Position numbers and translations under genes: made by a program | The notes under the pieces: generated by a model | What the model saw: only the letters and a program-made list of their open reading frames with translations | Told to the model about the DNA's origin: nothing | Database searches by the model: none | Shown: positions 3,041 to 15,968 of the stretch, piece after piece | Layout of the letters: the number at the start of each line of letters is the position of its first letter | Position numbering within the stretch: the stretch's first letter is position 1 | NCBI GenBank assembly: GCA_046483495.1 | Contig: JAWODC010000010.1 | Coordinates: forward strand, 1 to 16,008 | Origin: Desulfobacterales bacterium | GTDB lineage: Bacteria > Desulfobacterota > Desulfobacteria > Desulfobacterales > UBA5616 | Direction of reading: 5' to 3' | DNA: 16,008 bases

Positions 3041-3339
3041 AATAGACGCTGTTCTTCTAATCATTCAAGAATATGAACTCCGCCCGCTCTACTCGAAAAA
3101 ACCAACATTGGAACAGACATGAACCGTCGCAACACGTCCCCTTCACCCCTGGAGGGGGAAGGCCGGGATGGGGGGATTAAGACCCGATCCGCCTAACTGT
3201 TCACTGTTAACCGTTCACTGTTCACTTTTTGACACGGATTACACGGATTACACGGTTAAAAACAGATGACCCCCACAATGATTTTTGAAACCGCGAAGAG
3301 CACGAAGCACATGAAGAAAAACTAAAAACAGCGTCTATT
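3041..3339. mobile_element. Putative MITE-like non-autonomous element containing module A and a partial module B
   Basis: Perfect 13-bp inverted repeat AATAGACGCTGTT (3041-3053) / AACAGCGTCTATT (3327-3339); no coding capacity. Confidence 0.45.
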
Positions 3340-3405: not shown

Positions 3406-4191
3406 TTATCCGGCTTGCAAAACAGCACTCAAAAACTGCCGGGTACGCTCATTTTGAGGATCGGTCAATATCTCATCCGGCTTGCCTTCTTCCGCAATGC
3501 GCCCCTCGTCGAAAAAACAGACCCGGTCGGCAAACTCCCGGGCAAACCCCATCTGATGGGTGACGATCAGCATGGTCAGCTCATGGTCGTCCCCGAGCCG
3601 GCGGATCACGTTGATGACCTCGCCGACGAGCTCCGGATCCAGTGCCGAGGTGACCTCGTCGAACAGCATGATCTTGGGCCGCATGGCAAGCGCACGGGCG
3701 ATCGCCACCCGCTGCTTCTGGCCGCCGGACAGCTGCGCAGGATAGTGGTGCAGCTTGTCGCCGAGTCCAACCATCTCAAGGAGCTGTTTGCCGCGCTCCT
3801 CGGCCTCGCTCTTTTTTATGCCCAGCACCGTCACCGGCGCCTGCATGCAGTTCTTCAGAGCGGTCATATGCGGGAAGAGATTGAAGTGCTGGAACACCAT
3901 TCCGATTTTTTGCCGCATTCGCCTGAGGTGGGCCCGGTCGGCCCGTACCTGCCTTCCGCGTTTTTCCATATGGGTCAGCGGCTCCCCGTCGACACGGATC
4001 ACGCCGCCGTCGATGCCTTCGAGCGTCATGAGCACCCGCAAAACGGTGGTTTTTCCCGATCCGGAGGGGCCGATGATCGCCACCTTTTCTTTTTCGGCGA
4101 CCACGAGATCGAGGCCGTCCAGTACGGTCAGCGCGCCGTAGCTCTTTGTCACCTTGTCAAAACGAATGATGGGGACTGCGGGTTTCTGCAT
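3406..4191 (-). CDS. ehuA: Ectoine/hydroxyectoine ABC transporter ATP-binding subunit (polar amino-acid ABC family)
   Basis: Walker A GPSGSGKT, signature LSGGQKQRVAIARAL, Walker B MLFDEVTSALD; TVLRVLMTLE is EhuA-like; abuts ehuD. Confidence 0.88.
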   Translation of the reverse strand: MQKPAVPIIRFDKVTKSYGALTVLDGLDLVVAEKEKVAIIGPSGSGKTTVLRVLMTLEGIDGGVIRVDGEPLTHMEKRGRQVRADRAHLRRMRQKIGMVFQHFNLFPHMTALKNCMQAPVTVLGIKKSEAEERGKQLLEMVGLGDKLHHYPAQLSGGQKQRVAIARALAMRPKIMLFDEVTSALDPELVGEVINVIRRLGDDHELTMLIVTHQMGFAREFADRVCFFDEGRIAEEGKPDEILTDPQNERTRQFLSAVLQAG

Positions 4192-4866
4192 CTATGAAAC
4201 GGCTCCTTTTCGCCGATTCAGCCGCCTTTCCAACCGGCGGACCAATGCCGCGGAAATCAAGCTGAAGACGAGGAAAAAAATGCCGACCAGGGTGATCGGC
4301 TCGGTGTATTGAAAGCTTTCGGATCCCAGGATCTTGGCGGTCTGCATCAACTCGAGAACGGCGATCGCGGACAGCAGCGGCGTCTCCTTGAACAGTGCAA
4401 CAAGGTAATTGCCCAATGCGGGGATGACCGGCGGAACGGCCTGCGGAATGATGATGTCCTTAAAGGTGACAAACGGTGACAGGTTCAACGCGACGGCGGC
4501 CTCCCATTGTCCCCTGGGGATGTTCTCCAGTCCCGCGCGGTAAACTTCCGCGCAGTAGGCGCTGTAGTGCAGTCCCAGCGCCAGGATGCCCGCCGTCATG
4601 GCTTTGAGGGAAAGGCCGAATTCGGGAAATACGTAATAAATGAAAAAGATCTGGATCAGCAGGGGAGTGGACCGCAGAAATTCGACGAACCCTCCCGCCG
4701 GGCGGCTGACCCACTCTATCGGCGACATTCGAAAAACGGCGACCAGCAGACCGATGACCGCTGCAAGGGCAAAACCGCTCAGGGTTACCTGCAGGGTAAC
4801 GAGGGACGCATCGGCCAGAACAGGGAGAATTTCGAACGTGTATTGCCAATCCCAATCGAACGTCAT
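4192..4866 (-). CDS. ehuD: Ectoine/hydroxyectoine ABC transporter permease
   Basis: Hydrophobic permease with FDWDWQYTFEILP, RSTPLLIQ and EAA loop AEVYRAGLENIPRGQWEAA; 1-nt overlap with ehuC. Confidence 0.85.
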   Translation of the reverse strand: MTFDWDWQYTFEILPVLADASLVTLQVTLSGFALAAVIGLLVAVFRMSPIEWVSRPAGGFVEFLRSTPLLIQIFFIYYVFPEFGLSLKAMTAGILALGLHYSAYCAEVYRAGLENIPRGQWEAAVALNLSPFVTFKDIIIPQAVPPVIPALGNYLVALFKETPLLSAIAVLELMQTAKILGSESFQYTEPITLVGIFFLVFSLISAALVRRLERRLNRRKGAVS

Positions 4867-5603
4867 CAGACGACCCTCCCGCGATGAAGACCCCTGCCGG
4901 CGTATCGTTCCAGGGCCCGCATACCGGCGGTCACCACCAGGGATATCGCCAGGTAGAACAGCAGGACGATCGTGAATATTTCAACCGTTCGAAGGGTGTT
5001 CTGATTCAGCTGCTGTGCTTTGAACGCCAAATCCGAAAGGCTGATCATGGAGACCAGGGCCGTTGCCTTGAGCAGTTCGATGAACAGGTTCCCCCATGGC
5101 GGAATCATCGCGACAACAGCCTGCGGCAGGATGACGCGGCGCAGGGCCTGCATTTTGGTGAAGTTCAGCGCCCGGCAGGCTTCCCACTGGCCGCGGTCCA
5201 CCGCATTGACGGCGCCCCGGATCACCTCGGCCCCGTAGGCGCCGATATTCAGCCCGAGTGCCAGGCAGGCGGCGGTGAACGGCGTAAGCAGGATGCCCAG
5301 CTGGGGAAGGACGAAAAAAAGCCAGAACAGCTGAACCAGCGCGGAAGTGCCCCGGAAAATCTCGATGTAGGCCGCTGCGGCCCAGCGCAGCGGCAGCGGG
5401 GCGTACATTTTCATCACGGCCGCCGAGAGTGCCGCTGCAAGGGCGATGACGCTGCTCGCGGCGGAGATCTGCAGCGTTATCCATGCGCCGCGGAGCAATT
5501 CGGGCAGAAATTCTCGAACCGGTGAGAATACGGCGATCCACAAGCCGGCCGCAGCACCGAAAATGAAGGTGACGGTTAAGCGGTTTCGGTTTTCAGAATT
5601 CAT
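4866..5603 (-). CDS. ehuC: Ectoine/hydroxyectoine ABC transporter permease
   Basis: YIEIFRGTSALVQLFWLFFVLP and GAYGAEVIRGAVNAVDRGQWEA motifs; lies between ehuB and ehuD. Confidence 0.85.
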   Translation of the reverse strand: MNSENRNRLTVTFIFGAAAGLWIAVFSPVREFLPELLRGAWITLQISAASSVIALAAALSAAVMKMYAPLPLRWAAAAYIEIFRGTSALVQLFWLFFVLPQLGILLTPFTAACLALGLNIGAYGAEVIRGAVNAVDRGQWEACRALNFTKMQALRRVILPQAVVAMIPPWGNLFIELLKATALVSMISLSDLAFKAQQLNQNTLRTVEIFTIVLLFYLAISLVVTAGMRALERYAGRGLHRGRVV

Positions 5604-5663
5604 GGTTGGTTTCTACAGGTTCAGATTAAACAACTCCCGGATTTGTTATTAGGCCGGTAAGTT

Positions 5664-6024
5664 AAATCCGAAATTCGAAATACGAAATACCCTGGCCCAG
5701 ACCGAACACCATTTATTTGTTTCTTGAGCCACGTTTGACTTTACAAAGCTATTTCTTATGAAACAAACTATGGTCGCACCAGGGCGGGCCGAAACAAATT
5801 CTAAATTCGAAATCATAAATCCTAAACAGCAATAGAATATCAACCTTTTTTTTAGTCTCACCACGAAGAGCACACGAAGAAAAACGCAAAAATAAGCGCT
5901 ACTCCATCTTCGTGCTCGTGGTTTTCATAAATACCCATCGGTTTCTGCACGCGTCAGGAAAAAATCACCTTTCGCCGCCCAAACGCCGCCCCGCTTTGAA
6001 TTTTGAATTTTGAATTTCGAATTT
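5664..6024. repeat. Mirror-arranged short tandem repeats in the ehuB-ehuC spacer
   Basis: AAAT(C/T/A)CG heptamers (5664-5690) versus TTTGAAT/TTCGAAT (5995-6024); ACCACGAAGAGCACACGAAG (~5860-5879) versus CTTCGTGCTCGTGGT (~5908-5922). Confidence 0.75.
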
Positions 6025-6038
6025 ATTTGCCCCAACAC

Positions 6039-6905
6039 CTACTCTCCCGCACAATGCTCGGCAGCCGTCTTTTCCGGAAGGTTCGATTCGTCAAACCCGA
6101 ACGGGGCAACCATTCCCAGGTGCTCCGGCGTTCCGATAAAATCGGCCAGCACCTCGTTGACGGCGTCCCGCAGACCGGTGTCCTCCTTGCGAAACCCGAA
6201 CGACCCTTCGCCGCGGTACGATTTGCCGTTGTGCCGAAACGTAAACGGCGGGGTCCGTTCGATATCATCATCTTTGGCGGCGACACTTTTTGCGGTCAGC
6301 GCCGTCAATGCCGCGGCAACGGTCCGTCCGGATTTAACCGAGGCCACGGCCGACGCGAAGTCGGGTACGATGACGCGGTTTTTCCGTTTGACCCCCGCCA
6401 TTTTCGCATAGCCGATTTCGGCGGTCCCGGCTACATAGGCCACCTTGACATTCTTTTCGGCCACGTCCTCGAAAGATCGAATACCCTCGGGATTGCCCGT
6501 CTTGACGATGAAGGCATCGCCGATGCCGTAGGTCGGGTTGGCGAAAAGGATTTGTTCGCAGCGTTTGGGCGTAATGTACATGGAGGCGACGATGGCGTCA
6601 AACCGTCCGGCCTTGAGGCCTGGAATCAGTGATCCCCATTCGGTGAGCACGCCGTCGACCTCCGAAACGCCCAGCTGCTTCATGACATAACGAAATACGG
6701 TGGGCGATTCACCGGTCAATTTGCCGTCGGACGTCGCATACGCATAGGGGTTTTCGTTGGCAAACCCGATGCGGATATACCCCTGCCGTTGGATCTTTTC
6801 CAAGGTGGTTTCGGCGCCGGCCTTTACGGCCGCCCCGAAAAGGACCATCATCACGGCCGTCGCTGCTGCCGTGACGCATTGCAGTCGATTGTTTTTTACA
6901 ACCAT
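6039..6905 (-). CDS. ehuB: Ectoine/hydroxyectoine ABC transporter substrate-binding protein
   Basis: Signal peptide followed by TLEKIQRQGYIRIGFANENPYAY...TGESP, EWGSLIPGLKAGRFD and MYITPKRC; RBS AAGGAGG (reverse complement of 6911-6917). Confidence 0.9.
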   Translation of the reverse strand: MVVKNNRLQCVTAAATAVMMVLFGAAVKAGAETTLEKIQRQGYIRIGFANENPYAYATSDGKLTGESPTVFRYVMKQLGVSEVDGVLTEWGSLIPGLKAGRFDAIVASMYITPKRCEQILFANPTYGIGDAFIVKTGNPEGIRSFEDVAEKNVKVAYVAGTAEIGYAKMAGVKRKNRVIVPDFASAVASVKSGRTVAAALTALTAKSVAAKDDDIERTPPFTFRHNGKSYRGEGSFGFRKEDTGLRDAVNEVLADFIGTPEHLGMVAPFGFDESNLPEKTAAEHCAGE

Positions 6906-7732: not shown

Positions 7733-8371
7733 GGGTTATGGGTTATGGGTGAGGGGCTATAGGCGATGGGCTATGGGTGATGGGCGGGGTTGATCCCCGC
7801 CCGCTGACGCGGATTTTTTTTGACACGGATTACACGGATTACACGGTTAAAAACAGATGACCCCCTAATGATTTTGGTGAGCTATAAAATAAAGCACCGA
7901 TCCGTTTGTTGCACTTAAAGCCGTGAAATCCGTGTCTAAAAAAATTACCCGCGTCAGCGGCTTCGCCGCGCGATTAGACGCTGTTTCTATCTTTTGTTCA
8001 GGTTCAATATGAACTGCCTCCATAGCGGCGGGGTTGATCCCCGCCCGCTCTACTCGAAAAAACCGGCATTGGAACAGACATGAACCGGCGCAACATGTCC
8101 CCTTCACCCCTGGAGGGGGAAGGCCGGGATGGGGGGGATTAAGACCCGATCCGCCTAACTGTTCACCGTTCACCGTTCACTGTTCACCGTTCACTTCTTT
8201 TTGACACGGATTACACGGATTACACGGTTAAAAACAGATGACCCCCTAATGCTTTTTGGTAAGATATAAAATAAAGCACCGATCCGTTTATGCCTTTAAA
8301 ACCGTGAAATCTGTGTCTAAAAGAATAAGCCGCGTCAGCGGCTCCGCCGCGCGATTAGACGCTGTTTCTAT
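7733..8371. repeat. Large composite repeat: GGG(T/C)(T/G)AT heptamers, REP-like hairpin, module B, module A, TTCAC(C/T)G array, module B
   Basis: 7885-8352 aligns by eye, nearly end to end, with 13603-14065; 7801-7960 is bounded by CCGCTGACGCGG / CCGCGTCAGCGG. Confidence 0.92.
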
Positions 8372-8556
8372 TCCGCTCGGACAACCAGCTTGCAGCCCAC
8401 AGATCAACAGCCCAAAAAACACTTTCAAAAAAGTATGAATTCCGCTATTCAATAAGCTGTTCACTATTCCTGTTAAATGACAGATGAATTCCAATCCCAA
8501 CGATCCTAACAATCCCAACGATCCCAACGATCCCAAAAAATGAAAGAAGAACACCC

Positions 8557-9708
8557 ATGCCGACAGCCCTGATCACCGGCGTCACCGGCCAGGACGGCGC
8601 CTATTTAGCCGAGTTCCTTCTCGAAAAAGGCTACATCGTGCACGGCATCAAGCGGCGCGCGTCCCTTTTCAACACCAAGCGGGTGGACCACCTCTACCAG
8701 GACCTTCACGAGGAAAATCCCAGGTTCATCATGCATTACGGCGATTTGACCGATGCCACGAACCTCATTCGCATCATCCAGGAAACGCAGCCCGATGAAA
8801 TTTACAACCTGGCAGCGCAGAGCCACGTGAAGGTGTCCTTCGAGACCCCGGAGTATACGGCCGATACGGATGCAATCGGCACCCTCCGGCTGCTCGAGGC
8901 CGTGCGCATCCTCGGTATGGAAGAAAAAACCCGGTTTTACCAGGCTTCCACGTCCGAGCTCTACGGCAAGGTCCGGGAAATACCCCAGACGGAGAAGACG
9001 CCGTTCTATCCCCGTTCGCCGTACGCCTGCGCCAAGCTTTATGCCTACTGGATCGTGGTGAACTACCGCGAGGCCTACAACATGTATGCCTGCAACGGCA
9101 TCCTGTTCAACCATGAATCCCCGCTGCGGGGCGAGACGTTCGTCAGCCGGAAAATCACCCGGGCGGCCGCCCGTATCGCCTTAGGGCTCGAGAACCGTCT
9201 GTTTTTGGGAAACCTCGACGCCAAAAGGGATTGGGGGCACGCCCGCGACTTCGTCAAGGCCCAATGGCTGATGCTGCAGCAGGAAGCGCCGGACGACTAT
9301 GTCATCGCCACCGGCGAACAGCACTCCGTTCGGGAGTTCTGCGAGCTCGCCTTTAAGGAGGTGGGGATCGATCTCGCCTGGGAAGGGCAGGGGGTCAACG
9401 AAAAAGCCGTCGCCCGTGCGTTTGCCCCCACGCCGGTGATGGCGAAATATGAAGCCTTCTACAGGGACCGGAAACCCTTCAACGACCCGGTAGTGCTGAT
9501 CGATCCGCTGTACTTCCGGCCGACCGAGGTGGAGACCCTGCTGGGAGACTGCAGCAAGGCCGGGGCGCAATTGGGTTGGCGGCCGGAGACGAGCTTTTCC
9601 GGGATGATTCGGGAGATGATCGTCGCCGACCTGGCTGAAGCGGCTATGGAGGTTACCTGCGCGAGGAATGGGTTTGTGGTTCGGGATAGCTTCGAGGCTC
9701 AGATGTGA
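8557..9708 (+). CDS. gmd: GDP-mannose 4,6-dehydratase
   Basis: [77 protein letters not shown]. Confidence 0.97.
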
Positions 9709-9773
9709 TTGGCCGCGGACCCACACGGACGCACACAGGCAAATAAAGAAAAGAATAGGTTATGGGTGAGGGG

Positions 9774-9896
9774 TCGAAAAAACCGGCATTGGAACCAATA
9801 CCAACCGTCGCAACATGTCCACTTCACCCCTGGAGGGGGAAGGCCGGGATGGGGGGGGATTAAGACCCGATCCGCCTAGTGTTCACTGTTCACTGT
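9774..9896. repeat. Module A copy (lacking the REP-like hairpin) plus TTCACTG units
   Basis: TCGAAAAAACCGGCATTGGAAC...CTTCACCCCTGGAGGGGGAAGGCCGGGATGGGG...TAAGACCCGATCCGC. Confidence 0.9.
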
Positions 9897-9918
9897 AGTT
9901 CCACAAACGATAAACACC

Positions 9919-9952
9919 TTGACCACCAAAAAAATGGATATTAAAATGGTCA
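9919..9952 (+). promoter_or_regulatory. Sigma70-type promoter with overlapping inverted repeat (likely TA autoregulatory operator)
   Basis: TTGACC (9919-9924), 17 bp, TAAAAT (9942-9947); inverted repeat TGACCA (9920-9925) / TGGTCA (9947-9952). Confidence 0.6.
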
Positions 9953-9975
9953 TAATAATTCTATAAGGAAGAGCC

Positions 9976-10245
9976 ATGAACGATATCCAAAAGATCATGC
10001 CGGTGACAAAGGCCAAACGAGGGCTTCTCGATATCCTCAAAACAATGCAGGAAGACAACTCGACCATCATGCTGACGCGAAACGGGGAAGCTGTCGGGGT
10101 GATGATGACGCCCGAGCGGTACGAGGCGCTGTTCGAGACCATCGAAATTTTAGCGGATAAAAAGGTGCTCGATGCGCTCGCATCCTCCACCGACGATTTC
10201 AAAAAGGGAAGGGTTTATTCGGATGCCGAGGTATGGGACGAATGA
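9976..10245 (+). CDS. Phd/YefM family antitoxin
   Basis: 89 aa; IMPVTKAKRGLLDILK...IMLTRNGEAVGVMMTPERYEALFETIEIL, acidic C-terminus; RBS AAGGA; ATGA overlap with the downstream toxin. Confidence 0.88.
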   Translation: MNDIQKIMPVTKAKRGLLDILKTMQEDNSTIMLTRNGEAVGVMMTPERYEALFETIEILADKKVLDALASSTDDFKKGRVYSDAEVWDE

Positions 10246-10526
10246 GGGGGTATCGTCTCCTGTATTCGAAAACCACCCGCAGGCTGATCGCTGCATTGCA
10301 TCCGGAAATCAAAGCCATTGTACGCTCGAGGCTCGATGGACTGAAAAAAGAGCCGTTTACCGGCAAGCGGCTGGTGCGGGAGTTGGCCGGTTATCGCTCG
10401 CTTCGGGCCGGAAGATACCGAATTATTTACAAGGTGAATGAAGCAAAAAAGGCCATAGAGGTCCACTATGTGGGGCATCGTAGAGACATTTACGAAATCT
10501 TGGCCGAACGGCCTGATTCGCCTTAA
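10242..10526 (+). CDS. RelE/ParE superfamily (RelE/StbE-type) toxin
   Basis: Basic 94-aa protein with GKRLVRELAGYRSLRAGRYRIIYKV and VGHRRDIYE; start taken at the ATGA overlap (10242). Confidence 0.88.
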   Translation: MRGYRLLYSKTTRRLIAALHPEIKAIVRSRLDGLKKEPFTGKRLVRELAGYRSLRAGRYRIIYKVNEAKKAIEVHYVGHRRDIYEILAERPDSP

Positions 10527-10548
10527 TGGACAATAGGCTATGGGCAGT

Positions 10549-10648
10549 AGCCTTTTACCGTAGTAAAATATAAAATAAAGCACCGATCCGTTTGTTTGCT
10601 TTTAAAGCAGTGAGATCCGTGTCTAAAAAATATCCGCGCCGGCGGCTA
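10549..10648. repeat. Module B right arm downstream of the RelE-like toxin
   Basis: AGCCTTTT..C.TAGTAAAATATAAAATAAAGCACCGATCCGTTT...ATCCGTGTCTAAAAAA, also at ~12524 and 13581. Confidence 0.9.
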
Positions 10649-10729
10649 AAAATGCAGAATACCCAAACAGCCGGCCGATTCAAACCTAATCACCTAACCA
10701 CTTAACCACTTAATATCAAAGGAATCAAC

Positions 10730-12418
10730 ATGCAAAATCCGGATCCGAAACCGAACAAACCACAACCGACACCGGAAACCTCGACCTCCCCGGACGGCGG
10801 GATATTCCCCTTGCCCACCGAACCGGACTACATAAACGAAAACCAACGCCTGGAAAAACTCGTACAGGAACACCGCCGAATGGGCCGTCAAATCGTGGTC
10901 GTCATGGGGGTGGGCTTCGTAGGGGCGGTTATGGCCGGTGTGGTTGCGGACGCCGCAGACAAAGACACCGGCGAATCCCCGTACTTCGTCATCGGCATGC
11001 AGCGCCCCTCGCCGCGCTCGTACTGGAAGATTCCGTACCTCAACCGGGGCAGGGCGCCGGTGGAGGCAGAAGACCCCGAGGTGGTCCCGCTCATCGACCG
11101 CTGCGTCAACGACAAGAAGACCCTGACCGCCTCGTTTTCCTACGAGGCCCTGGCCCTGGCCGACATTGTAGTGGTGGACGTCCAGTGCGACTACCACAAG
11201 AACGCCTTAGGCGACGTGCGCGACGGCCACGCGGACATCAAGGCGCTGGAGGAAAGCCTGAAGGAAATCGGCAGCCGGATCGCCCCCGGGTGCCTGGTCC
11301 TAATCGAAACCACCGTGCCGCCGGGAACCACCGAGTACGTGGCCTATCCAATTATAAAGAAGGCCTTCGAGCAGCGCGGCCTCACCGGCGCGTCTCCTTG
11401 CCTGGCCCACAGCTTCGAGCGCGTCATGCCCGGCCGCAATTACGTGGCCTCCATCCGCGATTTCTGGCGGGTGTGCAGCGGCCTCACCGATGAAGCCCGG
11501 GACAAGGTGACGGCATTTTTGTCGAACATCCTGAATGTCGAGCAGTATCCGCTCACCGTGCTTGACCGGCCCATCGAGAGCGAAACCTGCAAGATCGTGG
11601 AAAACAGCTACCGGGCGGCGATACTGGCTTTTCTCCACGAGTGGAGCCTGTTCTCCGAGCGAAACGGCGTGGACCTGATCAAGGTCATCGACGCCATCAG
11701 GGTCCGCCCCACGCACAGCAACATCATCTTCCCGGGCCCGGGCATCGGCGGGTACTGCCTGCCCAAGGACGGCGGCCTGGGCGTATGGGCGTACCACACC
11801 CTGATGGCCTTCGAGGACGAAATCTTCAAGATCACCCCCGAGGCCATCGACATCAACGACACCCGCGCCCTGCACGTGGCCCGCCTCACCCGCGACGCCA
11901 TGCGCAACATGGGCCGCATCGTGGCCTCCTCCAAGATCACCCTGCTCGGCGCCTCGTACCGCCAGGATGTCGGCGACACCCGGTACTCCGGCTCCGAGCT
12001 CATCGTCCGCAAACTCACCGAAATGGGCGCCGTCATCACCGCCCACGACCCCTACGTCAAGCACTGGTGGGAATTCGAAAAGCAGGACACGTACCCGGCC
12101 CCGGGACACTCCTGGTCCCGCTTTTTCCGCAACCAGGCGGACCTGGCCCACCTGCACATGGAGCAGCATTTGGCCGAGGCGCTGAAGGGGACGGACGCCG
12201 TCATTCTCGCCGTCCCGCACAAGGACTACCTCGCACTCGATCCGGATGCCGTGTTCGCGATGATCGGGGGTGCTGCGGCCGTCGTGGATTGCTTCGGCAT
12301 TCTCACGGACGCTCAGATCGAGCGGTATTTCGAGCTGGGGTGTGAAGTGAAGGCTTTGGGGCGGGGGCATATTCAGCGGATTAAGGAGAAGGTCAGGACG
12401 AAAGATCGTGAATCGTGA
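10730..12418 (+). CDS. Nucleotide-sugar dehydrogenase (UDP-glucose/GDP-mannose/UDP-HexNAc 6-dehydrogenase family)
   Basis: Rossmann motif VVVMGVGFVG, ETTVPPGTT, ERVMPG, KIVENSYR, catalytic GPGIGGYCLPKD, LGASYRQDVGDTRYS; RBS AAAGGA at 10718-10723. Substrate cannot be determined from sequence. Confidence 0.9.
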   Translation: MQNPDPKPNKPQPTPETSTSPDGGIFPLPTEPDYINENQRLEKLVQEHRRMGRQIVVVMGVGFVGAVMAGVVADAADKDTGESPYFVIGMQRPSPRSYWKIPYLNRGRAPVEAEDPEVVPLIDRCVNDKKTLTASFSYEALALADIVVVDVQCDYHKNALGDVRDGHADIKALEESLKEIGSRIAPGCLVLIETTVPPGTTEYVAYPIIKKAFEQRGLTGASPCLAHSFERVMPGRNYVASIRDFWRVCSGLTDEARDKVTAFLSNILNVEQYPLTVLDRPIESETCKIVENSYRAAILAFLHEWSLFSERNGVDLIKVIDAIRVRPTHSNIIFPGPGIGGYCLPKDGGLGVWAYHTLMAFEDEIFKITPEAIDINDTRALHVARLTRDAMRNMGRIVASSKITLLGASYRQDVGDTRYSGSELIVRKLTEMGAVITAHDPYVKHWWEFEKQDTYPAPGHSWSRFFRNQADLAHLHMEQHLAEALKGTDAVILAVPHKDYLALDPDAVFAMIGGAAAVVDCFGILTDAQIERYFELGCEVKALGRGHIQRIKEKVRTKDRES

Positions 12419-12487
12419 ATCGGCGCTGGTTTTTTTATTAGCCACGGACACACACGGACGTACACGGACAAAGAGGTTATGGGTAAT

Positions 12488-12519
12488 AGGCTATGGGCGA
12501 TAGCCCATAGCCTTTCTTC
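12488..12519 (+). terminator. Possible intrinsic terminator built from two inverted heptamer-repeat units
   Basis: Perfect 11-bp stem AGGCTATGGGC / GCCCATAGCCT with GATA loop, followed by TTCTT, ~70 nt after the dehydrogenase stop. Confidence 0.45.
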
Positions 12520-12523
12520 CCAC

Positions 12524-12843
12524 AGCCTTTTTCCGCAGTAAAATATAAAATAAAGCACCGATCCGTTTATTGCTCTTAAAGCCGTGCAATCCTTGTCTAA
12601 AGAAAATTACCCGCGCCGGCGGCTTCGCCGTGCGCTGACGCGGATTTTTTTTGACACGGATTACACGGATTGCACGGTAAGGGCATTGGATCGGCTCTAT
12701 TTTAGATAAAAAAAATTTGACACGGATTTCCCCGGCGAAACACAAAAAAACAGGTTTCACAGGGCAGGCACGGATTGCACGGTTAAAAACAAAGAAAAAC
12801 GATAGAATAGTGTAGAATCCAAAAGTTTAAATGTTAAGAATGC
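12524..12843. repeat. Module B right arm followed by ~180-bp module C
   Basis: 12663-12843 is nearly identical to 15615-15794. Confidence 0.9.
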
Positions 12844-12891
12844 CCCTGGTTCCATTCAGGTGGCAACGACAGAACACCGACAACCATGCCC

Positions 12892-12934
12892 TTGACAACC
12901 GACCTCCAAAACGTATATATATCATGTATATACA
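12892..12934 (+). promoter_or_regulatory. vapBC promoter and operator
   Basis: TTGACA (12892-12897), TATATA-like -10 at 12914-12921, perfect palindrome TGTATATACA (12925-12934); RBS GGAGG follows. Confidence 0.6.
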
Positions 12935-12952
12935 ACAGTTCACGGAGGAAAT

Positions 12953-13183
12953 ATGAATACAGCGAAAATTTTCAAAAGCGGCAATTCCCAGGCGGTGCGG
13001 TTGCCGAAGGAATTCCAGTTCGATGTATCGGAAGTCCTGATCTTTCGAAGAGGCGATGAAGTGGTGCTGAAAAAGCGGCCCTCCAATCTTGCGCGCGTAT
13101 TCGAGCTGTTGACCGGGATGTCCGACGATTTCATGGAAGACGGTCGGCAGCAGCCCCCTGTGCAGGAAAGGGAATCCTTTTAA
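12953..13183 (+). CDS. vapB: VapB antitoxin (AbrB/SpoVT-type, VagC-like)
   Basis: MNTAKIFKSGNSQAVRLPKEFQF...RRGDEVVL...DFMEDGRQQPPVQERE; TAATG overlap with vapC. Confidence 0.92.
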   Translation: MNTAKIFKSGNSQAVRLPKEFQFDVSEVLIFRRGDEVVLKKRPSNLARVFELLTGMSDDFMEDGRQQPPVQERESF

Positions 13184-13578
13184 TGTTCATGCTGGACACC
13201 GACATTTGCATTTATATCATCAAGCAGAAGCCGAAAAGCGTATTGATGCGTTTTGAGAGGCTTGCGCCGGGCGAGCTTTCGATGTCGGCCATAACCTATG
13301 CAGAACTTATGAACGGCGCGAAGAAAAGCCGCCGGGCCGCGGAAAATATTGCAAGACTCGAGGAGATGGCCGAACTGATGAACATTCGACCCTTCGACAA
13401 AAATGCCGCGGTCGCCTACGGTGATATTCGTTCATCCCTCGAAAGAAAAGGCATGATCATCGGCAGCAACGATCTGCTGATCGCCGCGCATGCAGCAAGC
13501 TTGGATTGCACGCTCGTCACCAACAACGTCAAGGAGTTCAGCCGGGTGGACGGGCTTAAAATCGAGAACTGGACGTAG
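13183..13578 (+). CDS. vapC: VapC PIN-domain ribonuclease toxin
   Basis: MLDTDICIYII, SAITYAEL, IGSNDLLIAAHA, LVTNNVKEFSRVDGLKIENW. Confidence 0.94.
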   Translation: MFMLDTDICIYIIKQKPKSVLMRFERLAPGELSMSAITYAELMNGAKKSRRAAENIARLEEMAELMNIRPFDKNAAVAYGDIRSSLERKGMIIGSNDLLIAAHAASLDCTLVTNNVKEFSRVDGLKIENWT

Positions 13579-13580
13579 AC

Positions 13581-14065
13581 AGCCTTTTTCCATAGTAAAA
13601 TTTAAAATAAAGCACCGATCCGTTTATTGCCCTTAAAACCGTGGGATCCGTGTCTAAAAAAAAATATCCGCGTCAGCGGCTCCGCCGTGCGATTAGACGC
13701 TGTTTCTATCTTTTGTTCAGGTTAAATATGAACCGCCTCCGTAGGGACGTGGTTGACCCCCGCCCGCTCTACTCGAAAAAACCGGCATTGGAACAGACAT
13801 GAACCGGCGCAACATGTCCCCTTCACCCCTGGAGGGGGAAGGCCGGGATGGGGGGGATTAAGACCCGATCCGCTAACTGTTCACTGTTCACCGTTCACTG
13901 TTCACTTCTTTTTGACACGGATTACACGGATTACACGGTTAAAAACAGATGACCCCCTAATGATTTTTGGTGAGATATAAGATAAAGCACCGATCCGTTT
14001 ATTGGCTCTTAAAACCGTGGGATCCGTGTCTAAAAAAATTATCCGCGTCAGCGGCTCCGCCGTGC
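13581..14065. repeat. Second copy of the large composite repeat, between the two vapBC pairs
   Basis: Same module order and near-identical sequence as 7885-8352. Confidence 0.92.
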
Positions 14066-14106
14066 ATCGAAATTCAAACAGAAAAAAATTCGACCCCGAC
14101 ACCCGT

Positions 14107-14181
14107 ATATCCCATTGACATATCCCAAACCGCAATCTATATTACAAGAAAAACCAAACAAGGAAGCCGCCATGGGATATG
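14107..14181 (+). promoter_or_regulatory. Second vapBC promoter and repeated operator half-sites
   Basis: TTGACA (14115-14120), 17 bp, TATATT (14138-14143); ATATCCCA at 14107-14114 and 14120-14127, with its inverse TGGGATAT at 14173-14180 over the start codon. Confidence 0.6.
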
Positions 14182-14408
14182 CAAAAACAAAACTGTTTAA
14201 AAGCAACCGAAGCCAGGCTGTTCGCCTGCCCAAGGAAGTCGCATTTTCGGAATCGGTGAAGGATGTCGAAATCATTGCCGTCGGCGAAAAGCGCATCATT
14301 GCACCGGCCGGCCGATCCTGGGATGACTGGTTTGACGGGCCGGGGGTGTCCAGTGACTTTATGAGCGAGCGGTTGCAGCCCGAAGACCAGCATAGGGAGA
14401 CGTTCTAG
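14172..14408 (+). CDS. vapB: VapB antitoxin (AbrB/SpoVT-type, enterobacterial VapB-like)
   Basis: ATG at 14172 after RBS AAGGAAG; TKLFKSNRSQAVRLPKEVAF, WDDWFDGPGVSSDFMSER; TAGTG overlap with vapC. Confidence 0.92.
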   Translation: MGYAKTKLFKSNRSQAVRLPKEVAFSESVKDVEIIAVGEKRIIAPAGRSWDDWFDGPGVSSDFMSERLQPEDQHRETF

Positions 14409-14827
14409 TGCTGAAATACCTGCTGGATACCAACATGGTCATCTACACGATGAAAAACCGCCCCCCTGCGGTCAAAAGGCGGTTTAAGCAGAATCACGGC
14501 CGCATGGGCATTTCCGCAGTAACATTGGGAGAATTGATTTTCGGTGCAGAACATTCACAACAGGTGGAGCGAAATCTGGCCGACATCGAAGCCCTGGCGG
14601 CACGACTCGAGGTGTTGCCGTTCGATGAAAAGGCGGCGTATCACTTCGGTCGACTACGGGCTGTGCCGTACACGTCGGGAAACCCTATCGGGCCCTACGA
14701 CATGATGATCGCCGGTCATGCCAGGGCATGCGGTCTGATATTAGTCACCAACAATGTCAAGGAATTCGAACGTGTGCCGGGGTTGGTGATTGAAGATTGG
14801 AGTGAAACAATAGCCGGTAGTCTGTAG
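14408..14827 (+). CDS. vapC: VapC PIN-domain toxin (resembles the tRNA-fMet-cleaving enterobacterial VapC type)
   Basis: GTG start; MLKYLLDTNMVIYTMKNRP, ISAVTLGELIFGAE, PIGPYDMMIAGHARA, LVTNNVKEFERVPGL. Confidence 0.93.
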   Translation: MLKYLLDTNMVIYTMKNRPPAVKRRFKQNHGRMGISAVTLGELIFGAEHSQQVERNLADIEALAARLEVLPFDEKAAYHFGRLRAVPYTSGNPIGPYDMMIAGHARACGLILVTNNVKEFERVPGLVIEDWSETIAGSL

Positions 14828-14850
14828 GCGGTAGGCGGTGTGGCAGTGAT

Positions 14851-14952
14851 AAACGCCGGCGAATCAATATTCAACACCGATTGGTGTATGACGTGGATCC
14901 AATCCGGAAAATTGTCCACGTTCTCCGAATGTGGACCCATTATGAACAGTGA
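14851..14952 (+). pseudogene. 5'-truncated Txe/YoeB family toxin fragment
   Basis: Hand translation from 14851: KRRRINIQHRLVYDVDPIRKIVHVLRMWTHYEQ*, matching the Txe/YoeB C-terminal pattern SRRINIQHRLVY...VLRMWTHYE. An in-frame TAG lies at 14818-14820 and no start codon precedes the motif. Confidence 0.8.
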
Positions 14953-15198
14953 AAGAACGATCCGTTTCTTTACCCACCGACCACCGGCCATTTTTTTGTT
15001 TGCAAGAAAAAACGAATGTGATATAGGCACTACTTCGGTTCAGCAAGATCACCCGGTTCGGGTCGATTTACACCTTCAGTTTCCCATTTTGGTTTTATGA
15101 CGATCATCCAAAACGGGTAAATACCGGATTTACAGCCGGGCATCCTTATCCCCCCGGCCGAATCATTCCTGGATGGATGAACACGCGTTTGAGATTAT

Positions 15199-15444
15199 GT
15201 GGCCGGTAGTGACGATATGTTGAGTTTTACAGTAGCGGCAAGATTGTGTTCTTTCACCCTGGGCACGTTATGGCGATGGATCAGGCTTGGCGGGATGAAA
15301 CCCTGTTCATCCCCGGGCGGCCATCACACGTTTCAAATCGAAGACCTCATAAAGTCAATCCGGCATGGCGAAGTTCCTGCCGGCCCCGCTATTCACAAGC
15401 GAAATGTTTTTATCCCCATAATTTCGGGTTCCTCGAAACCATGA
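15199..15444 (+). CDS. Small excisionase/MerR-like helix-turn-helix protein, possibly a degenerate remnant
   Basis: LSFTVAARLCSFTLGTLWRWIRLGGMKPCSSPGGHHTFQIEDL resembles HTH_17 domains (xAAxxC...T.WRWI..G.L....TPGGH.R....DL); weak RBS, uncertain start (GTG 15199 or ATG 15217). Confidence 0.5.
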   Translation: MAGSDDMLSFTVAARLCSFTLGTLWRWIRLGGMKPCSSPGGHHTFQIEDLIKSIRHGEVPAGPAIHKRNVFIPIISGSSKP

Positions 15445-15614
15445 TACAGCTACTTTTATTTTGGGAATACGCTGAAGCTGCGGCTGGCTGAAAAAAATCA
15501 ACGATCATATAATATATCAAATAGTTAGAGTGCAGTTTGCGCTGTAAACTACGGGGCGGAGCTGCCAGTAACATTATCAGCCACAGATCCACACGGACGC
15601 ACACATAGGTTCTG

Positions 15615-15875
15615 ACACGGATTGCAAGGTAAGGGCATTGGATCGGCTCTATTTTAGATAAAAAACTTTGACACGGATTTCCCCGGTGAAACATAAAAAA
15701 ACAGGTTTCACAGGGCAGGCACGGATTGCACGGTTAAAAACAAAGAAAAACGATAGAATAGTGTAAAATCGAAAAGTTTCAATGTTAAGAATGCGGACGC
15801 ACACAGACAAATGAACTATAAAATAAAGCACCGATCCGTTTATATCTTTTAAAGCCGTGCAATCCGTGTCTAAAT
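15615..15875. repeat. Module C (second copy) plus module B right arm
   Basis: Matches 12663-12843; contains ATAAAGCACCGATCCGTTT at 15823. Confidence 0.9.
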
Positions 15876-15968
15876 AAATTCTTTCCGCGCCAAGCGGAAA
15901 GCAAAAGCTTTTCAACCCAAATTCACATCAAAAAAACCAGCGTTCAATCACGCCCATATGTGAGACGG

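Follow-up and report, generated by a model that had tools for sequence, protein, structure and literature searches.

Integron arrays, along with clusters of attC sites lacking integrases (CALINs), consist of co-oriented genes, with a repeat following many of those genes, and with toxin-antitoxin (TA) modules among them that supply their own promoters. Neisseria intergenic mosaic element (NIME) arrays with dRS3, by comparison, are mosaics of short inverted repeats and spacer families, and these have been proposed to promote recombination and variation of neighboring surface genes, whether by homology or by a specific enzyme (PMC1797815). Such arrays are called Neisseria-specific in that paper (PMC1797815). 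Considered here is a 16,008-nt stretch of DNA, ‘the window’, which is the whole of contig JAWODC010000010.1 (C38; G, C, and L below label genomes, contigs, and loci, respectively) from a Desulfobacterales bacterium (G000; assembly GCA_046483495.1, 4.19 Mb in 94 contigs, 96.7% complete). It carries seven copies of a 19-mer, ATAAAGCACCGATCCGTTT, among polysaccharide genes and TA modules, copies which a preliminary description took to be candidate sites of an integron-like cassette system. The best reading instead is a mosaic array of NIME-like design, in which homologous recombination does the shuffling.

More fully, and with a probability of about 0.6, the seven sites are right halves of a nested inverted-repeat element, with arms of a kind that flanks GxxExxY and DUF559 nuclease genes. 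These halves likely have been multiplied by unequal homologous recombination, and likely provide dispersed homology for the duplicating, losing, and moving of promoter-bearing TA modules. The arms, that is, would first have come with nuclease cassettes, since lost, with RecA-type unequal crossing-over between co-oriented arms then building the array, the orientation of which would be kept because direct copies allow duplication and deletion. Type II TA modules persist since losing them is toxic, and it is this toxicity of deletion that may cause TA modules to pile up.

The 19-mer is present, as first described, in seven exact copies (Table 1), all on the plus strand and none on the minus strand, and each continues downstream into the conserved unit previously noted. 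Three copies possess the AGCCTTTT leader (at 10549, 12524, and 13581, i.e., ~22, 105, and 2-3 nt past stop codons, respectively). A repeat finder shows the sequence past the 19-mer to match, in reverse complement, a CACGGATTA-periodic arm found upstream of three of the sites. Both of these 9-periodic inverted arms are present in 3/7 units (copies 7889, 8271, and 13982), each of which folds into a long DNA hairpin (z of -11.2, -3.75, and -3.2, respectively). The other four units are lone right halves, with no long hairpin seen upon folding.

A fuller version of the element is found on another contig of the same genome. There, at C93:13790-14075, the order is 7-mer array, short hairpin resembling repetitive extragenic palindromic (REP) sequences, CCGCTGACGCGG, CACGGAT left arm, inner CACGAAG/CTTCGTG hairpin, and the linker ATAAAGCACCGATCC, while at C93:16920-17570 the layers are mirrored about an arm of the DUF559 type, and each end has the linker in inverted form. 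The layering thus runs from 7-mers through REP-like hairpin, CCGCTGACGCGG, CACGGAT arm, linker, and CACGAAG arm to the DUF559 arm. In this fuller element the 19-mer sits between the inner (CTTCGTG-word) and outer (ATCCGTG-word) right arms as a linker, and this linker is a variant of how module A, a further block of the array, ends. The full copies in the window may be read, from this layout, as the C93:13790-14075 form with the inner hairpin missing. The copy at 3225-3310 has kept the start of the inner arm and is without the 19-mer.

An 85-nt core displays 75-92% pairwise identity among the seven units, which rules out assembly duplication as their source; irregular spacing and the genes found between copies similarly rule out CRISPR, and a structured RNA was rejected upon 0 Rfam matches at the gathering threshold. 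The blocks 7885-8352 and 13603-14065 constitute a duplicate pair, of 91.5% identity. Leaders and trailers are reassorted among units, and shared blocks end at similar offsets from the 19-mer; crossovers therefore took place in or beside the unit core. This fits with homologous and site-specific exchange alike.

If exchange were site-specific, then a dedicated recombinase of integron-like type, with its gene elsewhere, could use the 19-mer as core site, with successive sites bounding excisable sugar or TA cassettes. The invariance of the 19-mer, its single orientation at a single locus, the presence of a unit after most genes, and the similar block ends all speak for such a recombinase, as too do several tyrosine-recombinase-like genes in the genome, which score below the cut-off for IntI. 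It nonetheless is very improbable. The 19-mer is not supported as an attachment site, being instead the linker of a mirrored element as well as a variant form of module A's tail, it occurs also inverted and beside housekeeping genes, near-identical units are inverted within a housekeeping operon (C93), and relatives carrying the same TA modules have no conserved site. Block ends are similar within the window and staggered in another genus. That no intI is present was noted, the 10 matches to TIGR02249 reaching at best 86 bits versus a cut-off of 265 (within a genome that is 96.7% complete), as was the lack of attC structure. For the latter I take R'' (RYYYAAC) and R' (GTTRRRY), at a spacing of 40-140 nt, to be the appropriate patterns, and 0 such pairs were found at 7/7 sites, on both strands. 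Similarly, with TTATGYYAAR taken to be the dif-like XerD half-site, 0 matches were found in the window, and the lone units have no dyad.

Module A fares no better as a site-bounded cassette. It does lie by itself between two of the site pairs, as claimed, but is present as well inside the interval holding gmd and Phd/RelE (9774-9875) and outside of site pairs altogether (54-154 and 3093-3192). Indeed, most of the 7885-8352 block is found also at 3074-3287, without any 19-mer. Genome-wide, module A gives 59 matches on 20 contigs, many of them as inverted pairs.

The exact 19-mer is essentially private to this genome and, within it, to this contig, as no exact copy was found outside of C38 in the 4.19 Mb. 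Inexact matches in the genome number one with one mismatch, four with two, and 11 with three. Among 300 other genomes of the order only one has the 19-mer with at most one mismatch, the full hairpin as query gives solely arm-sized matches, in 5/60 relatives, and a scan with the unit of a genome collection returned three single matches, in unrelated taxa and at chance level, and of metagenome contigs returned 0.

The unit as a profile is distributed quite differently. It gives 35 matches genome-wide (E<=0.1), 14 on the window's contig (seven plus and seven minus, five of the minus ones inside the span 7885-15875 of the preliminary description) and 21 on nine other contigs (nine plus and 12 minus). 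The co-orientation that had been reported thus holds for the exact 19-mer but not for the unit. I grouped the 21 outside matches into 16 clusters, of which one is beside an O-antigen ligase and one is two genes from glycosyltransferases, with the remainder adjoining genes such as bamA/skp, ABC permeases, CopA, and a cytochrome c operon. No identified TA gene is beside any of the 16 (though small genes could be missed with the open reading frame floors used, 70 and 110 aa), nor are there PIN genes on the contigs that carry these clusters. The C93 copy closest to unit 6, for example, has a cytochrome c-like gene on one side and an Fe-S gene on the other. The exact word is confined to this locus, and the wider family occurs elsewhere mostly beside housekeeping genes and in both orientations. 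The conservative alternative that was offered at the outset, that of an abundant family resembling REP sequences or miniature inverted-repeat transposable elements (MITEs), came closer to the truth than did cassette sites. As an aside, arm clusters on C56 of this genome are found a few genes downstream of a rpe-aroQ-like operon, and vapBC-1 orthologues directly follow rpe-aroQ in L142 and L144 (G067 and G130).

Alternatively, arms and TA modules may simply collect, neutrally, in a permissive, horizontally exchanged polysaccharide locus, with the arms playing no part in gene movement. Arms are found also by housekeeping genes that do not look like cargo, no arm is within 2 kb of 5/7 PIN genes and 17/19 listed epimerase-family genes, and DNA similarity to distant TA orthologues is limited to a stretch that starts approximately at the promoter and ends at the toxin stop, a common site being absent. 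Shared blocks in congeneric genomes, as described below, nevertheless extend beyond genes and into arm sequence, and the 471-nt duplication of the window begins and ends in units. Such neutral accumulation is viewed here as quite unlikely.

In relatives, polysaccharide loci hold co-oriented TA arrays in which orthologues of the TA modules described above are found again. In G005 (C95; L194:9197-15824), VapBC, Phd/RelE, HicAB, MNT/HEPN, and other modules are flanked by an hldE-like gene and by wzz, with that genome's own 9-mer and 8-mer repeats setting them apart. G275 (C44; L201) has gmd with vapBC-1 and vapBC-2, G021 (C96; L202) has vapBC-1 twice along with vapBC-2, in G079 the dehydrogenase that precedes vapBC-1 is the same as that of the window, and in G003 Phd/RelE is between rmlA- and rmlC-like genes. 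Among retrieved loci with VapC-1 of at least 60% identity, 8/11 have a sugar-pathway gene in the DNA examined, a count to be read with window sizes that varied and with no matched control. In G005:C95, G186:C150 (L195:8852-14486), G275:C44, and G021:C96, TA and MNT/HEPN modules form long arrays of a single orientation within polysaccharide loci, most of these arrays being punctuated by a genome-specific arm word.

Movement as such is observed with three congeneric genomes, G094, G186, and G221. Whereas in G221 the next sugar gene follows the dehydrogenase without any insert, ugd also missing, at the syntenic point G094 has ugd, GxxExxY, MNT/HEPN, vapBC-1, DUF433/5615, and a four-helix gene, and G186 has ugd, Phd/VapC, MNT/HEPN, a ParE module, DUF433/5615, Phd/RelE, a GxxExxY stub, and vapBC-1. 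The order of vapBC-1 and DUF433/5615 thereby is swapped between G186 and G094. The ParE module is found at three different places in the congeneric genomes, with 92% identity versus 83-88% for the backbone. Its three-way identity begins at a 9-mer right arm and stops shortly past the genes, while pairwise ends differ, i.e., are staggered, and shared blocks take in arm sequence beyond genes. TA modules thus are gained, lost, reordered, and relocated among these genomes, with junctions staggered in or near arms. The shuffling that had been proposed for polysaccharide and TA genes together accordingly survives in part: TA modules are indeed gained and lost between repeats in the polysaccharide loci of relatives, but each genome has its own repeat word, junctions are staggered, and movement as a unit bounded by repeats was seen for no sugar gene.

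The arms themselves are linked to nucleases. CACGGAT/ATCCGTG arms, as in the window, flank GxxExxY genes in G027 (L008 and L018/L070), this in a gene family which is above cut-off in 36/61 genomes searched. An inverted repeat (score at least 30) joins both flanks at 22/29 GxxExxY loci, as compared with 0/29 upon shuffling, 0/25 RelE loci, 0/29 dehydrogenase loci, and 4/29 VapC loci (one GxxExxY and four RelE loci being left out for short flanks). The inverted-repeat score replaced a strict periodicity detector, which was too insensitive for GxxExxY arms (5/30). With a looser word, the left arm is upstream at 10/30 and the right arm downstream at 10/30 GxxExxY loci, versus 0.2% of 5000 random windows. 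DUF559 genes abut a module A arm in 3/3 matches, with both arms on C39, a partial upstream arm on C64, and a contig end on C93. The three copies (C39:8081-8464, C64:84076-84333, and C93:4-246, all in G000) are nearly identical, that on C93 having an internal TGA and that on C64 lacking its 5' end, which suggests a recent spread of this DUF559 element. That TA cargo takes the place of the nuclease as a general rule was considered and rejected, as inverted arms flank 1/3 window TA modules, 4/29 VapC loci, and 0/25 RelE loci.

Given such pairing of genes and arms, it can be asked whether the nucleases prime the shuffling, that is, whether GxxExxY or DUF559 proteins cut a cognate hairpin arm on single-stranded DNA, with repair then moving a neighboring TA module and the array serving as a programmed hot spot for variation. 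I know of no activity for GxxExxY or DUF559 on these arms. The gene-arm pairing is tight, an intact GxxExxY heads the array in G094 with a 5' stub in that of G186, GxxExxY follows gmd in G005 and G056, and vapBC-1 in the window is enclosed by inverted arms. There is precedent as well in SsnA cutting single-stranded DNA near NTS repeats (PMC11893778). This scenario is an unlikely one, however, with no GxxExxY gene found in G000, staggered junctions requiring no nuclease, and RelE loci having no flanking inverted repeats. Doubtful to much the same degree is a broader version, under which polysaccharide loci of the order would be integrase-free cassette arrays, self-promoted TA modules would be inserted, put in new order, and carried to other places through the cutting, by tiny GxxExxY/DUF559 nucleases, of the hairpin arms that belong to them, a private arm word would evolve in each lineage, and the window would be such an array after loss of GxxExxY. 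The stub in G186 (L195:13504-13582), as a separate matter, is a cassette in decay, found behind its arms and sharing 90% identity with the first part of the intact gene of G094. GxxExxY genes are found also between gmd and fcl in two genomes (L203:4616-4981 and L218:9444-9818).

Returning to homologous recombination between halves of a nested element, a number of observations weigh against it. All seven exact 19-mers fall within 8 kb, and the 19-mer is better conserved than the remainder of its unit (the longest invariant run covering 19 of the 88 columns; p=0.0003 in a post hoc shuffle of columns), something which recent gene conversion or a binding constraint possibly underlies. Ends of shared blocks recur at offsets of -4 to -12 and of +72 to +84 or +100, and a fixed crossover point would give the same. 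The evidence for movement is from another genus with other arm words, and, as arms fill nearly all array spacers, junctions there fall in arms by default. GxxExxY gave 0 matches in G000, 96.7% complete, as well as in its congener G001, and no four-helix-bundle gene was found in G000; the origin of the arms consequently is read from other genomes. Stricter periodicity tests detect arms at just 5/30 and 6/29 GxxExxY loci, the exact CACGGAT word flanks just one of the 30 best such loci, and most TA orthologues elsewhere are without a flanking inverted repeat.

Table 1. Positions of repeat units, arms, other repeat layers, and genes within the 16,008-nt window.
Feature	Position	Strand	Remarks
Unit 1: 19-mer linker (7889), right 9-mer arm, outer end	7877..7972	+	
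Unit 2, 19-mer at 8271	8259..8352	+	
Unit 3, 19-mer at 10575; right half alone, preceded by AGCCTTTT leader	10549..10647	+	
Unit 4, 19-mer at 12550; lone right half with leader	12524..12634	+	
Unit 5, 19-mer at 13607; lone right half with leader	13581..13691	+	begins 471-nt block 91.5% identical to 7885-8352
Unit 6, 19-mer at 13982	13970..14065	+	nearest relative is C93:17409 copy (93%)
Unit 7, 19-mer at 15823; most diverged lone right half	15811..15897	+	
Left 9-mer arm (CACGGATTA x3) with outer CCGCTGACGCGG end	7801..7858	-	pairs with right arm 7900-7962; hairpin 7799-7962
Left 9-mer arm, hairpin 2	8193..8239	-	z -3.75
Left 9-mer arm, hairpin 3	13905..13950	-	z -3.2
Left arm with inverted CCGATCC linker, plus block 96% alike 15615-15794	12633..12845	-	
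Degenerate left arm, plus block common to 12663-12843	15609..15794	-	
REP-like short hairpin ending CTCTAC (reverse GTAG tag)	8024..8053	+	others near 24, 1899, 7783, 13743; GTAG-REP label by resemblance
Module A: one arm of DUF559-flanking inverted repeat, 19-mer-like tail ATTAAGACCCGATCC	8054..8154	+	
7-mer tandem array ACTGTTC	8158..8194	+	
Module A copy upstream of Phd/RelE	9774..9875	+	
REP-like hairpin, module A (13773-13873), 7-mer array	13736..13904	+	
REP-like hairpin, module A, 7-mers, left arm, inner CACGAAG arm start, without 19-mer	3074..3310	+	between two non-polysaccharide genes
REP-like hairpin, module A, left arm with inverted linker, at contig start	7..217	+	upstream of HtrA-type protease gene
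gmd, GDP-mannose 4,6-dehydratase	8557..9708	+	TIGR01472 above cut-off
Phd/RelE-ParE TA module	9919..10526	+	sigma-70-like promoter match 9919-9947
Nucleotide-sugar dehydrogenase, UDP-glucose/GDP-mannose family, long form	10730..12418	+	
vapBC-1 module: upstream conserved region, vapB, vapC	12913..13578	+	inverted arms on both sides
vapBC-2 module	14107..14827	+	promoter match 14115-14143
YoeB C-terminal fragment	14851..14949	+	TIGR02116 positions 54-80, E 1.2e-7, below cut-off

The genes called previously in the right half of the window stand, i.e., gmd, Phd/RelE-ParE, a nucleotide-sugar dehydrogenase, two VapBC modules, a YoeB C-terminal fragment (found by NCBIfam, missed by Pfam), and a helix-turn-helix (HTH) region, the match for which is weak (E 7e-4). 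In the left half are an HtrA-type protease, flavodoxin/ferredoxin, and an ectoine ABC transporter. A scan of the window for promoters and terminators gave 11 versus 6.7 expected and 11 versus 12.8 expected, respectively, and by that scan the repeat units are not terminators. A further type of left-arm word, CCACGGAC/CACACGGAC, follows gmd (9709-9750), the dehydrogenase (12422-12470), and the HTH region (15585-15610), and in G275 too a word like it is found by gmd. The gmd gene here is without an adjacent fcl, unlike in G003, G005, G275, and G056, and its orthologues in genomes of the family have other gene contexts.

The long-form dehydrogenase has ~70-76% identical homologues in 100/300 genomes of the order, scores below the TIGR03026 cut-off, and has no match at E<=1e-100 in the five genomes of the family; the gene possibly was acquired. 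The ectoine/hydroxyectoine transporter (3406-6905, minus strand; EhuB and EhuA above cut-off) is fitting for a saline habitat. With the HtrA-type gene, a repeat mosaic found upstream (10-480) is in frame, resulting in a spurious 622-aa open reading frame, and the true start is likely near 481.

Of described systems, NIME arrays are among those closest to the window, as they too are mosaic arrays of short inverted repeats and spacer families between genes (PMC1797815). The comparison is by architecture only, however, since the sequences are unrelated, and the window nests several arm families and has TA modules as its movable cargo. No dRS3-like family (ATTCCC N8 GGGAAT) is among the repeats listed for the window, for which there was no dedicated search. 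The Ssn/NTS-SRM system similarly has a small single-domain nuclease gene between cognate hairpin repeats, repeats which also are found gene-less genome-wide (PMC11893778). Ssn is a GIY-YIG nuclease, however, while here the genes are GxxExxY (PF13366) and DUF559, with 9-mer-periodic or G/C-block arms.

REP sequences and bacterial interspersed mosaic elements (BIMEs) with their REP-associated tyrosine transposases (RAYTs), as well as TIRtrons, resemble the present repeats in forming gene-less palindromes as singles, dimers, and clusters, with a GTAG-like hairpin being one layer here (PMC3733652). The 19-mer unit nevertheless has neither a GTAG nor a CGTC tag, and of the two Y1 genes in the genome neither is within the 25 REP-core matches nor has such hairpins in the flanks examined. 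BoxC/PIT/TMECO repeats share with module A a layout of C-block, G-block, and G-block, and the TMECO consensus is CCCTCNCCC N3-6 GGGNGAGGG N3 GGGNGAGGG (PMC4666352). Module A at 8085-8137, compared by eye, is not an exact fit to that consensus, and DUF559 goes unmentioned in the available text of the BoxC paper (PMC4666352). For a classical DDE MITE, no target-site duplication was apparent by eye in the flanks examined.

Integrons and CALINs are like the window in having co-oriented genes, a repeat after many of these genes, and self-promoted TA modules, but the window is without an IntI above cut-off, R''/R' boxes, or a site that travels with modules, and the junctions are staggered. A false integron-like candidate thereby is removed. 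For arrays of four-helix genes, TA modules, and polysaccharide genes, no clear match was found in the literature searched, which takes in few subscription papers.

What the locus adds is the nesting of several repeat families in one element along with the traffic of TA modules between arms. Three repeat types which had been unexplained, i.e., 9-mer arms, BoxC-like arms, and 7-mer arrays, are joined in a single nested element that is linked to small uncharacterized nucleases, and TA modules are seen, with three congeneric genomes, to move as units between arms in surface-polysaccharide loci. A NIME-like architecture is found thereby outside of Neisseria, along with a concrete substrate on which to test what GxxExxY/DUF559 proteins do. 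Should nucleases drive this movement, cassettes would be shuffled by a route that is new; otherwise it is ordinary repeat-mediated recombination.

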